NCBI GenBank assembly: GCA_965116925.1
Contig: OZ220744.1
Coordinates: forward strand, 3,360,001 to 3,424,000
Length of the DNA: 64,000 nucleotides
Reading direction: 5' to 3'
Source of the DNA: Candidatus Poribacteria bacterium
GTDB taxonomy: Bacteria > Poribacteria > WGA-4E > PCPOR2b
Of the stretch, positions 11,073 through 59,427 are shown in pieces; positions within the stretch are counted from its first letter, which is position 1; every line of letters starts with the position of its first letter. Both the position numbers and the translations under genes were made by a program. The notes beneath the pieces are model-generated. The model did not search any database and was not told the DNA's origin. It was given only the letters and a program-made list of their open reading frames with translations.

Positions 11073-11250
11073 AAATGTAGCGCAAACTGTTAGTTTGCGA
11101 CCTGAGATCACAATCTAAATGAGATTTAAGTATTTAAATCGGTAATCCCGATTTTCCTCGAAACACACGGTAGGCGCGGTTTTCAACCGCGCCGGTGTCC
11201 ATAACAAATTACCGAATTATTTTTTTAATCTTCATACAGATTGTGCTACA
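11073..11250. mobile_element. Double-hairpin REP element A carrying a 117-bp TIR element B (11119-11235)
   Basis: GTAGCGCAAACTGTTAGTTTGCG...CACAATCTAA[ATGAG...CTTCAT]ACAGATTGTG; empty A copies at about 16508, 18778, 21913, 28227, 63641. Confidence 0.8.
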
Positions 11251-21894: not shown

Positions 21895-22071
21895 CTAGTA
21901 CATTGTCAGATAAATGTAGAGCAAACTGTTAGTTTGCGGACTCGGATCACAATCTAACAGATTGTGGTACAAAAGCCTCTGTTAGATACTTCCCCCCACA
22001 AAGCGGCTTGGCTATGGCTATCCAAGCCGAGCGGTGAGTGCCTTATCATGATTTATTTGACGGAGCACTAG
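21895..22071. mobile_element. Miniature element D (CTAG-bounded imperfect TIRs) with REP A and a second hairpin as cargo
   Basis: CTAGTACATTGTCAGATAAAT...ATTTATTTGACGGAGCACTAG; near-identical inverted copy at 28127-28302. Confidence 0.8.
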
Positions 22072-50085: not shown

Positions 50086-50581
50086 CAATATGTGTGGGAC
50101 AAAGGCGATTGTTATAGCGCACCCCTTTGTATAGTAGTAGGTATACGCTGTAGGCCGTAACTCCAGCAGTGTGCAGTGTAGAGGAGCCATCAGCTCAATC
50201 AACCAACATAGCCCCAGCGGGGCAACATGTATATAGCAATGCTGCATCCCTATACACCCAAGCCCCAGCGGGGCGACATGTGTAAGTAACGGTGCTGCCT
50301 CCAATAGGTTGGAAAACTATGGTGAATGCGAAAAATAAATAGACACTTTCACCCCTCAGTTTCGATTCCCCTGACAAATCGGGGTAAACTAATTATCGGG
50401 GCCGGTAGGTGCGGTTTCCCCCCGCACCGGACATCGCTCGGAAATTACCGAATTAATATTTTAATCTTCATACAGATTGTGATACAAAGGCGGTTAGGTT
50501 GCGGTGTGTAAACGCAAAATGGGCGAGGTGACCTCTCTCCTACGAGATTGTGGGTTCACTTACAGAAAGGGAACATTCTAT

Positions 50582-51709
50582 ATGAAAATAATGGCGATGG
50601 TACTTATGCTTTTGGTTCTATTTTTACCGAACACTTTTGCCCAAGAATACACACGGATGATTCTGCCCGAAGCTACGATTGTGCGTTTCGACCAGAGCAG
50701 TGTAATGCGGGTGCTGTATTCTCCGGACGGAGCACGGCTCGCTGTTCTGAGTGTCAACAGCCCTAAGGTGCCCATCGGTATTTGGCTCTACGACATAACG
50801 ACCTATCGAGAGGTTGTCCAGCTCGTCGGGCCAGATTGGGTCTATGGCATAGCGTTCAGCCCGGATAGCACCACGCTTGCCAGTGGTGGGAGTCGGGACG
50901 GGACGGTGTGGTTGTGGGATACCGAGACGGGTGAACAGAAGGGTAGCCTCACCGGGCATACGGAGGGGGTCACAAGCGTGGCGTTCAGTCCAGATGGCAA
51001 GACGCTTGCCAGTGGGAGTTATGACGGCACAGTGCGTTTGTGGGATGCCGAGACGTGGGAACCTAAGGGTACACTCACTAGGGATATGAGGGTAGTCTAT
51101 GACGTAGCGTTCAGTCCAGATGGCAAGACGGTCGCCGGTGGGAATTGGGACGGCACGGTGCGATTGTGGGATGCCGAGACGGGTGAACAGAAGGGTAAAC
51201 TCACTGGACATACGACAGCGGTCTATAGCGTCGTGTTCAGCCCAGATGGCAAGACGCTTGCCGGTAGAAGTGAGGCAAATACGCTGTGGCTGTGGGACAC
51301 CGAGATGGGTAAACCTAAGGGTACACCCACCGAGAGGATCTCAAGGGTAGTGTTCAGTCCAGATGGCAAGACGCTTGCCGGTGGTAGTTATGACCATACG
51401 GTGCGATTATGGGATGTCAAAACAGGTGAACCTAAGGGTACACTCACCGGTCATAGGCACACGGTCAATAGCGTAGCGTTCAGTCCAGATGGCAAGACAT
51501 TTGCCAGTAGTGGTAGTTATGACCATACGGTGCGGTTGTGGGATGCCGAGACGTGGGAACCTAAGGGCACACTCAACGGGCATACAGAGAGGGTCATAGA
51601 CATCACGTTCAGTCCATGGGTCACAGGCGTAGCGTTCAGTCCAGATGGCAAGACGCTTGCCAGTGGGAGCACGGACGGGACGCTGCGGTTGTGGAAAGTC
51701 CCTGATTAA
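50582..51709 (+). CDS. Secreted WD40-repeat protein
   Basis: Signal peptide; GHT..V.SVAFSPDGKTLASGS.DGTVRLWD repeats. Confidence 0.93.
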   Translation: MKIMAMVLMLLVLFLPNTFAQEYTRMILPEATIVRFDQSSVMRVLYSPDGARLAVLSVNSPKVPIGIWLYDITTYREVVQLVGPDWVYGIAFSPDSTTLASGGSRDGTVWLWDTETGEQKGSLTGHTEGVTSVAFSPDGKTLASGSYDGTVRLWDAETWEPKGTLTRDMRVVYDVAFSPDGKTVAGGNWDGTVRLWDAETGEQKGKLTGHTTAVYSVVFSPDGKTLAGRSEANTLWLWDTEMGKPKGTPTERISRVVFSPDGKTLAGGSYDHTVRLWDVKTGEPKGTLTGHRHTVNSVAFSPDGKTFASSGSYDHTVRLWDAETWEPKGTLNGHTERVIDITFSPWVTGVAFSPDGKTLASGSTDGTLRLWKVPD

Positions 51710-51757: not shown

Positions 51758-51935
51758 GTAGCGCAAACTGTATGCAATTAAAAAAATAATTCGGTAATTC
51801 TACGACGGACGATTCTCAATCAAGAAGTGGCTCTAACCTTGTAAATCCTTGAATTCCTGTAAATTCTGATCCAGACAATCAATACCACACATTACCGAAT
51901 TAATAAATCAATCTTCATACAGATTGTGGTACAAA
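51758..51935. mobile_element. REP A with a B-type TIR element (51772-51918) replacing its centre
   Basis: GTAGCGCAAACTGT[ATG...CTTCAT]ACAGATTGTGGTACAA. Confidence 0.7.
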
Positions 51936-55269: not shown

Positions 55270-55557
55270 TTCAGGGCGATTTTCTTATCCTAGCCCAAGT
55301 GTTTTGGGCAGGCACAAGCCCCACGCTCAACCTGCCCTCACATTGGATTGATTCCTGTAGGGGCAATCCCTTGTGGTTGCCCTGTTGTAGGTCGATTTTC
55401 CAAAATCGACATTCTTTCGTAGGCATCCCGATACATTGGGAGGATCATAGCGTATGAGGAGGTCGAGATATGAATCTCGACCTACAGACTGTATAGGGTA
55501 TGTTGACATTTTGATGTTGCTAATTCGGCAAACGCTGTAATCATTGGGTAATGTACC

Positions 55558-55735
55558 AAATGTAGCGCGAACTGTTAGTTTGCGAGATGGATCACAATCT
55601 AAATGAAGATTAATTTATTAATTGGGTAATTTCCGAGCGATGTCCGGTGCGGTTGGAAACCGCACCTACCGGGTCTGGGGAAATATAGAATTACCCGTTT
55701 AATTTCTTAAAACCCATACAGATTGTGGCACAAAA
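55558..55735. mobile_element. REP A with element B (55603-55717) inserted
   Basis: CACAATCTAA[ATGAAG...CCCAT]ACAGATTGTG. Confidence 0.8.
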
Positions 55736-56401
55736 TCACAGACATACAGCAAATTGTAAAATCAACTCAACCCGCCTGATTTTATCCTATCATTCCTTTA
55801 ATGGTCGTATCCTCTTGGCTCCGGTTAAAATCTCCTCAGAAATCTTAGACATTCTTGAAAAAGAGTTGAGACCGTGATATGATAACCCAAGTTTCTCAGG
55901 CGTATCGACATTTATATGAGGTGTATCCGTAATTCAAGGCCTGGTATTGCTGGATACTGATGTTTACCCAATCGTAGGATCTTTTTTCGTAGGGGCGAGG
56001 TTTCCTCGCCCAATGGGTTGGGAGACCCAACCCCTACGCATTCAACAGGTGTCCAGACAGTTTTTTCGCAGATGGAACACTCTCGGAATAGAGACATATT
56101 ATTCCTCTTTAGCCTCAGCGGGGCGATATGTATATAGCAAACTAGTTGTTGTTCTGGTGTTTGTCTGAATCGTGAGACGAAGCGTAATAGGTAATGCGGG
56201 CATCGCAGATTAGGCAATCTGCGCCACGATTGGCATCATTTGCACGACTACTGGGATTCTATAACATAAACCAAGTCGTTAGAATCAGACAGAAACCGAG
56301 TTTTGAAGAAAAAACTCGGTTTACAGTGCTTGGTCTATCAACTAGCAACTTGCGTTAATATACAAGATTCACCATCTCAATGTACCAATGAACTAACGAA
56401 C

Positions 56402-56699
56402 TGTAGTGGATCTTAGAATTAATGAGACACTCCAAACCGGTGCGGTTGCATGAAGTTTAATTTATTAGTTCGGTAATTTGCTAGCGACATCGGCGCGGTT
56501 GAATGAAAATTAAAAAAATAATTCGGTAATTTGCTAGCGATGCCGGCGCGGTTGAAAACCGCGCCTACCGTATGTTTCGAGGCAAATCGGGATTACCGAT
56601 TTAAATACTTAAACTTCATAAAACCGCGCCTACCGTGTGTTTCGAGGGAAATCGGGATTACCGATTTAAATACTTAAATCTCATCAAACCGCACCTACC
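56402..56699. mobile_element. Triple nest: B (56503-56619) inside B (56450-56684) inside a C-type element hairpin
   Basis: GGTGCGGTTGC[ATG...GGCGCGGTTGA[ATG...CAT]AAAACCGCGCC...CAT]CAAACCGCACCTAC. Confidence 0.85.
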
Positions 56700-56734
56700 A
56701 TCTCAATGAACCAACCATATAAAGGAGTATAATC

Positions 56735-59094: not shown

Positions 59095-59427
59095 TTAATC
59101 TGAATCCTTACTTTTACGATCTGGTATAAGCTTATTCAGAATCAATCGAATGTCCGCTCGAATCTCATCAAATCGTCTATCAATAGCATCAAATCGTCTA
59201 TCAATAGCATCAAATCGTTTATCGATAGTCTCAAATCGCCTATCGATAGTCTCAAATCGTCTATCAACAGCCTCGAATTGTTTATCAACAGCCCCGAATC
59301 GTCTATTAACATCATTACGGAAATCATCAATGCGTTTGTTGGTTTGTCGGTTGACATATATCACAATGCCCCCAACACCAACAACAATTGACACGATGAT
59401 TGTAAGTGTCTGTCCCCAATCATTCAT
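59095..59427 (-). CDS. Membrane-anchored coiled-coil protein with heptad tandem repeats
   Basis: TM helix then DRRFxAI/DRRFETI 7-aa (21-bp) repeats; AGGAGG RBS. Confidence 0.8.
   Translation of the reverse strand: MNDWGQTLTIIVSIVVGVGGIVIYVNRQTNKRIDDFRNDVNRRFGAVDKQFEAVDRRFETIDRRFETIDKRFDAIDRRFDAIDRRFDEIRADIRLILNKLIPDRKSKDSD

Follow-up and report, generated by a model that had tools for sequence, protein, structure and literature searches.

Nested copies of a miniature element

The window – the whole 64 kb stretch of DNA that we analysed – belongs to a genome (G000) made of one contig of 6.47 Mb. On its plus strand, positions 56404..56436 hold the left part of an element termed MITE C, which carries the host REP and whose right part is missing at this place. 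The 5′ arm of the host hairpin, with the first two loop bases GC, follows at 56437..56449 (plus strand). There a second element, MITE B, has entered the loop: the outer copy of B spans 56450..56684 on the plus strand, with GC|CA at its joint, and the hairpin resumes at 56685..56698 (plus strand) with the duplicated C (C56449 being its other copy), the last loop base, the 3′ arm and the CTAC tag. This outer copy is split at its own internal hairpin by another B, hence a length of 235 bp, that is, 117 + 117 + 1. The inner copy (56503..56619, plus strand, 117 bp, joint GA|AA) has 28-bp imperfect TIRs flanking a GTAG-type REP hairpin, GCGGTT-GAA-AACCGC-CTAC. It lies between the duplicated A at 56502 and 56620, and its folding z is -3.47 when compared with 200 shuffles.

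Further copies occupy a target that has no sequence kinship with the GCGGTT one. A B of a 115-bp subfamily (55603..55717, plus strand, joint AA|AC) fills it as CACAATCT-AA[B]AC-AGATTGTG at 55593..55727 (no strand assigned), and a 117-bp B on the minus strand (11119..11235) fills a second CACAATCT-AAC-AGATTGTG hairpin, AA|AC again when read on the plus strand. Two remnants are each followed by AC-AGATTGTG: a partial B with one TIR and the hairpin (50402..50471, minus strand) and a solitary B-type TIR (51891..51918, no strand assigned). The initial annotation of the window had described four copies of a 117-bp element, each repeating the central base of a 3-nt loop. All four lie where it placed them and repeat that base; the length is right for three, the outer one counted as 117 + 117 + 1, while the copy at 55603-55717 has 115 bp. 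The empty hairpins that it reported are present as well, CACAATCT-AAC-AGATTGTG for example at 21948..21966 (plus strand, family D9) and GCGGTT-GAA-AACCGC within the inner B. Its view that B is non-autonomous, with the mobilising enzyme encoded outside the window, agrees with searches of the 64 kb for IS630 and Y1 transposases, which gave no match. An Rfam search of the window gave none either.

At the scale of the genome, a scan of G000 with six 40-base end probes, allowing at most 9 mismatches, gave 231 B ends, i.e. 103 pairs and 25 unpaired ends. The element has ends ATG...CAT and 28-bp imperfect TIRs with a GTAG-type REP hairpin between them. It measures 115-117 bp in 94 of the 103 pairs, and none of the 103 copies lies inside an ORF of at least 150 aa. 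Short, non-coding, multi-copy and bounded by TIRs, B has the features of a MITE, including ends in common with an autonomous element. The 115-bp subfamily appears to have spread recently, because its 17 scored copies show a mean of 1.7 differences and 8 are identical. A B-type element at another locus (L253), 937 bp long, contains a two-ORF transposase-like insert that does not resemble the transposase described below.

The commonest host of B is MITE C, which has ends TAGTRGAT.../...TTCACTA and about 190 copies in G000 (one of its ends gives 187 matches genome-wide), duplicates TA and carries the GCGGTT REP; an intact copy lies in the region of G000:C1:3121734. Among 58 GCGGTT-type B sites retained by a crude flank filter, 43 are located in MITE C. 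G000 also has seven other IS630-like elements, with different ends and TA flanks; these and MITE C duplicate TA inside a known repeat. MITE C appears to go with them, as its ends resemble theirs.

Sites of insertion in the genome

We scored 102 of the 103 pairs, one pair with a decayed end being left out, and called a site palindromic when, in the exact dyad register, complementarity extended to 6 or more of the 8 flank positions. By this measure 96/102 copies of B mark the precise middle of a palindrome; with the register shifted, in six ways, the count falls to 0-2/102, and of 20,000 positions drawn at random 0.45% qualify. One base is repeated across the joint at 79/102 sites – 2,000 shuffles of the flanks gave a mean of 28.5 and a maximum of 43 – and this base is G in 29 cases, C in 26, A in 15 and T in 9; in all these counts, sites within one repeat family are non-independent events. 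Longer repeats are rare (2-bp at 4/102, 3-bp at 0/102), and TA on both sides is found at none of the 102 sites. When B and one base are taken out, the exact empty 20-mer exists elsewhere in G000 for 64/102 sites, as compared with 8/102 when B alone is removed and none when two or three bases go with it. Reading the ends as TG...CA with a longer duplication is ruled out by the paucity of 2-bp repeats, the lack of 3-bp ones and the lack of corresponding empty sites.

The annotation had asked whether insertion is always at the palindrome centre with a 1-nt duplication, and had seen palindromes related by structure rather than by sequence. As to the centre, the 96 sites bear it out, and the palindromes are indeed unrelated, since MITE and IS sites together comprise 28 distinct 5-base stems; the empty 20-mers allow empty and filled sites to be compared within G000. 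The duplication is less regular, being absent at 23/102 sites, 21 of which belong to the high-copy GCGGTT family. For 16 of these 21, each half is seen at normal sites, so that they would fit hybrids of two normal sites; the other 5 do not fit this. Two sites that seem non-palindromic are normal ones, later split by a TA-duplicating element, and four read GGTTA|C, with the left side one base short.

Direct traces of movement were sought in two ways. In reads over a region with six sites, where three sets of contigs break at the repeats, no clean joint of the 'element plus one base' kind was seen among the 15 joints listed (422 further ones were recorded). No orthologous empty allele was found in 11 genomes of the same genus, where the intergenic region has turned over completely. 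The region orthologous to window positions 55270-56734 measures from 230 to more than 1,400 bp in these genomes (L101-L111), no two of which have the same mosaic of REP-like repeats.

The partner element and its transposase

The ends of B match those of a 1,241-bp IS present elsewhere in G000, which has near-identical TIRs (28-bp, imperfect) and a 384-aa ORF, P0001, the single transposase gene that these TIRs bound. Over 89 copies of B, the left end agrees with that of the IS at a mean of 26.2 of 28 bases and the right end at 21.8 of 28. P0001 has only two copies in G000, both within B's own hairpin, where B pairs holding the IS measure 1,346 bp (G000:C1:1430374-1431719) and 1,359 bp (4122158-4123516). 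An A is repeated at one of these insertions and the flanks read GA|CA at the other. The 1,359-bp pair belongs to a three-level nest (L002, G000:C1:4122104-4123578), in which a 115-bp B holds a 117-bp B that holds the full IS, each at a hairpin tip. B therefore carries a usable target, as the annotation had supposed from the B-in-B nests, and an autonomous element with the same TIRs, which it had also suggested looking for, does exist in two copies; its enzyme is of the IS630 DDE type and not a RAYT/HUH protein or a resolvase. Having TIRs in common with a DDE element, B also departs from what is expected of REPIN/RAYT (HUH) systems.

P0001 scores 161 bits against the NCBIfam model transpos_IS630 (NF033545, cut-off 100) and matches DDE_3, with D191, D273 and E334 conserved. 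Its predicted model (pLDDT 91) has complexes of Mos1, i.e. transpososomes, as top structural matches (E 7.6e-10), so that P0001 is an IS630-family DDE transposase with a predicted Mos1-like fold. Two features set it apart from canonical members. The second D to E spacing in this family is typically about 35 residues, as it is in relatives L091, L093 and L191; in the P0001 clade it is 59-60. The canonical TA with its 2-bp duplication occurs at 0/102 MITE sites and at 1/75 sites of the full IS in related genomes, which places the element as an IS630-derived variant, outside the canonical members. Because its ends match the 1,241-bp IS alone, the other IS630s having other ends and TA flanks, B is best read as a MITE of that IS, and would be mobilised in trans. 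The most likely mover is thus an IS630-like transposase encoded outside the window in the same genome.

Protein features were compared with the target rule, and none of those checked tracks the switch. The insertion of about 25 residues between D and E fails as sole cause, being absent in L191, still at a REP centre; so does the change from DNW to DNR (W to R after the second D), since a subclade that lacks it has kept the one-base repeat. Plasmid matches to P0001 have 26-28% identity among the 40 listed, and all 1,466 fall below 60%. Five Y1_Tnp (HUH) matches in G000, candidate REP-associated transposases, lie at G000:C1:6296312, 701269, 328972, 5955107 and 6178252, two of them within about 1 kb of B ends. 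DnaA-domain matches number two on the one chromosome (G000:C1:4979157 and 6054295).

Relatives and a sister lineage flanked by TA

Close relatives of P0001 are found in Ca. Poribacteria genomes: 37 of 176 genomes of the phylum of the window match it at E 1e-40 or better, and a sample of 61 genomes from the order has the end motif in 45. We fetched 95 IS loci, 85 of which had callable ends; removing 5 of the sister lineage, 2 with mis-called ends and 3 duplicates left 75. These full-length IS show a one-base repeat at 56/75 sites (shuffle mean 20.7, maximum 33) and none at 19/75, a palindromic site in 60/75 and TA|TA once. A further sample of 29 paired elements from 7 other genomes, 28 of them of another family, taken from the first-listed rows of the order survey, gave 23 one-base repeats and 23 palindromic sites, with new stems. 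Four full IS (L058, L059, L061, L062) have symmetric flanks, GT|AC, and not GT|TT or AA|AC; copies may have recombined with one another, the ends may have been joined to two hairpins, or a template switch may have corrected the flanks.

The P0001 clade has a FastTree support of 1.00. Its sister lineage, at 35-36% identity, has the D35E spacing, homologous ends ATGAA...GGTAAT and CTA|TAG flanks in 5/5 cases, compatible with a 2-bp duplication or with a blunt joint. These homologous ends and CTA|TAG flanks fix the ends of B and of its IS as ATG...CAT, as does the fact that MITE C and the other IS630s of G000 duplicate TA inside a known repeat.

More distant relatives come from metagenomes, where both flanks were callable in 48 of the best 80 among 542 confirmed loci. 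Reading outward from the element in these 48, position +2 is A at 91/96 ends and position +1 is A in 36, C in 30, T in 27 and G in 3. The commonest joint is TG|AA (16), TA|TA occurring 6 times, and a one-base repeat fits 9/48, about 11 being expected from composition. Several relatives among the same best 80 lie at the centre of a GTAG REP, which in its empty state at the same loci (L137, L148) reads T-NN-A; this centre is found in the empty REPs of 13/17 viral-contig matches. With such centres in the empty REPs, blunt insertion into T-NN-A loops is the simplest account of these distant relatives. Flanks of different copies may be joined in short metagenomic contigs, and such chimeras could hide pairings; the scarcity of G at +1 is beyond what they could account for.

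What the targets have in common

Beyond their symmetry, the targets favour purines at positions +3 and +4, while all four bases occur at +5 to +7. Filled sites with perfect 7-bp arms begin the 3′ stem with RR, RY, YR or YY in 68, 4, 2 and 0 cases, against 537, 256, 211 and 479 among empty hairpins with a 3-nt gap; thus not one of these filled sites has purines 5′ of its loop, as 479 empty hairpins do. Targeting by the P0001 clade has a sequence bias too, pyrimidines 5′ of the loop being strongly preferred, and the annotation, which spoke of structure-guided targeting, was right about the unrelated stems and had missed this bias. The motif YYNNNRR occurs 422,188 times, so that by itself it is insufficient to explain the sites. 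Loop-closing bases are able to pair at only 5/135 sites. In d(GNA) loops, according to the accessible text of PMC3201870, closure by C:G is more stable than by G:C. The 5′-pyrimidine bias parallels this stability; direct readout would yield the same bias.

Hairpin families with even loops have received almost no insertions in G000, where a single 4-nt-loop insertion could be verified and 324 RR hairpins of that kind are empty. Within the clade, joints in 4-nt loops are blunt at L221 and L222, show an off-centre one-base repeat at L223 and are ambiguous at L219 and L220. Such joints reject, for the P0001 clade, a strict rule by which the duplication would equal 4 minus the loop length; taken with the GGTTA|C sites, they indicate a flexible stagger.

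A hairpin reading and its competitors

We think it likely, with some reserve, that this lineage derived from IS630 recognises a hairpin or cruciform in its target and that its attack falls, on either strand, two bases 5′ of the stem. The observed basis is the ends in common, an intact DDE ORF and the same target pattern in the MITE and the full IS. By analogy with the Mos1/Tc1 family, a transposase dimer would excise the element and join each 3′ end to a target strand. The target would be a short palindrome pairing within one strand, as hairpin or cruciform, its extrusion being inferred from the flanks; many unrelated hairpin sequences, none of them TA, are hit at their centre, which suggests choice by DNA shape, and the fact that pairing is conserved while sequence is not speaks for structure within a strand. 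Each end of the element would be joined two bases 5′ of where the 3′ stem starts, and the base that starts it would preferably be a purine. With a 3-nt loop the two joints would be staggered by 1 nt, so that repair doubles the central base; with a 4-nt loop they would be blunt or yield a 1-bp repeat off the centre. The joint would lie at the same distance from a usually purine base in all three groups, and what differs between them would be the half-site spacing: 2 bp for TA (if truly duplicated), 1 bp for the 3-nt loop and 0 bp for T-NN-A. The Mos1 target is bent by 147 degrees, with an adenine flipped and read and a dispensable thymine contact, in the accessible account (PMC5481204), and these features make such a half-site logic plausible. 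As REP-like repeats are intergenic, and one lies in B and another in MITE C, insertions would avoid genes and sometimes nest. The broader proposition, that hairpin-tip recognition replaced TA recognition in a widespread IS630/mariner lineage, target geometry setting a duplication of 2, 1 or 0 bp, seems to us evenly balanced between true and false. Several points stand against hairpin recognition: the stems, at 7-9 bp, have little length for a stable cruciform; cruciform tips are far apart, so that concerted joining of both ends lacks a geometric explanation; loop size is not a strict determinant of the stagger; and to these are added the sites without a one-base repeat and the lack of a protein feature that tracks the switch.

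A doubtful but serious competitor keeps the same enzyme and lets it act on duplex DNA, at a symmetric YY-NNN-RR with a bendable centre, to which a REP-binding protein (of Y1/RAYT type) or supercoiling would steer it. The strong RR bias at +3/+4 is what this would predict, and Mos1 does deform and unpair the centre of a duplex target, as far as the accessible text of PMC5481204 goes; the five Y1_Tnp matches offer candidate proteins, and the orientation of B relative to its target is biased, 66/86 in one sense. A single tethering protein should nevertheless favour one family, whereas insertions have reached 28 unrelated stems as well as several palindromes of single copy, and staggers of 0, 1 or 2 bases are ill-suited to one rigid duplex geometry. 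It is improbable that B seldom inserts by itself and that a small number of composites (REP+B or C+B) spread whole, through gene conversion, through RAYT or through the canonical IS630s, and so swelled the counts. The concentration of GCGGTT-type sites in MITE C, the fact that sites without duplication mostly belong to that family and the orientation blocks common to repeat families speak in its favour; yet near-identical copies of B and of the IS sit in many unrelated stems and loops, and full IS copies show the pattern without MITE C. That the palindromic flanks were made by or after insertion, through inverted copying of a flank or template-switch correction, is hardly credible: symmetric loop remnants such as GT|AC might be so produced, but the exact empty palindromes of 64/102 sites largely refute it, and the arms retain the asymmetric context of their repeat family. 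We give equally little credence to another mover, a TA-type IS630 of G000 or an HUH transposase: seven such IS630-like elements and five Y1_Tnp matches are at hand, and family f2 has B ends while its partner did not turn up in 11 genomes, but those IS630s differ in their ends and use TA, and B ends match the 1,241-bp IS only.

Comparison with known systems

IS630/Tc1/mariner elements integrate with a 2-bp stagger, strictly at TA, in the accessible part of PMC5481204. B and its IS resemble them by an IS630-family DDE enzyme with a Mos1-like fold, by TIRs and by ends common to MITE and IS; they differ by the absence of TA (0/102), a 1-bp repeat of any base, location at palindrome centres and 60 residues between D and E instead of 35. 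In the accessible literature, members of other IS families insert at hairpin axes, and RAG does so in vitro. The annotation had cited REP-targeting IS as sequence-specific; such elements exist, but insertion at the REP axis had already been described, ISPsy8 at the symmetry axis of a hairpin and ISRm22 at the palindrome axis of a REP, in the part of PMC1525189 open to us. The REP-targeting IS named there belong to families IS3, IS110, IS4, IS256 and IS5, and the same accessible text does not mention IS630 among them, nor does that of PMC3733652. ISPpu10 requires a stem-loop in its target besides its bridge RNA, in the accessible text of bioRxiv 10.64898/2026.03.19.712850. Like B, ISPsy8, IS1397 (IS3), ISRm22 (IS4) and ISPpu9/ISPpu10, ISPa11 and IS621 (IS110) use one fixed point of a REP; each of them, on the available accounts, has one target consensus and a 0-, 2-, 3- or 6-bp repeat, whereas the lineage of B uses at least 28 stems, with more in further genomes, and no single conserved REP consensus of the IS1397/ISPsy8/ISRm22 type was found.

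Two DDE systems read structure. IS1272, of the IS1182 family, targets inverted repeats by their structure and replaces the stem-loop (accessible text of PMC5678879); it thus removes the stem-loop without duplication, while B sits at the tip, both arms being kept in 96/102 sites and one base repeated in 79. The closest functional parallel, in the accessible literature, is RAG1/2 tip targeting. RAG prefers the tips of cruciforms in vitro, most events falling at most 4 bases from the tip, and the sequence of the tip matters while that of the stem does not (PMC1618415, in its accessible part). As described there, it differs in being a eukaryotic recombinase, acting in vitro and without a fixed 1-bp outcome. 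No report of hairpin-axis insertion by IS630 was found in the open literature, ISfinder, subscription papers and supplements lying outside this search.

The TA rule with its 2 bp is regarded as strict for IS630/Tc1/mariner, the family of Mos1 and Sleeping Beauty; staggers of 1 bp and apparently 0 bp, beside a TA-flanked sister with homologous ends, make the geometry of the stagger directly testable. The system also opens tests of whether short REP hairpins are extruded in vivo and of a compact transposase aimed at DNA shape. If the broader proposition held, nature would offer a structure-guided integrase made of a single protein, to which intergenic REPs of any sequence serve as safe landing sites. 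Annotation based on target-site duplications will miss elements of this type, and insertion of B helps explain the nested intergenic repeat mosaics of these sponge-associated bacteria.

Nesting, orientation and neighbouring repeats

The nested arrays foreseen by the annotation do occur, as a minority: four fully paired B-in-B nests among 103 pairs. The orientation of B along the chromosome comes in blocks (24 runs, 52.5 expected), tied to local GC skew (p 0.0003) and with no link to gene direction. Coupling of insertion to the replication fork might produce such blocks, but empty REPs share them, and insertions in the minority orientation divide 9:11. B, the hairpins of MITE C and a CGCTCC REP family lie in long common orientation blocks along a patchy GC skew, which suggests strand-biased spread and many inversions. 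One block boundary falls inside the window, B being on the minus strand at 11119 and on the plus strand at 55603. The window contains other repeats as well: a 21-bp tandem repeat, 7 copies in register (59147-59335), within a small minus-strand ORF (59095-59427), and an ORF (50504-51709) built with 126-nt repeats, which we take to resemble WD40 repeats.
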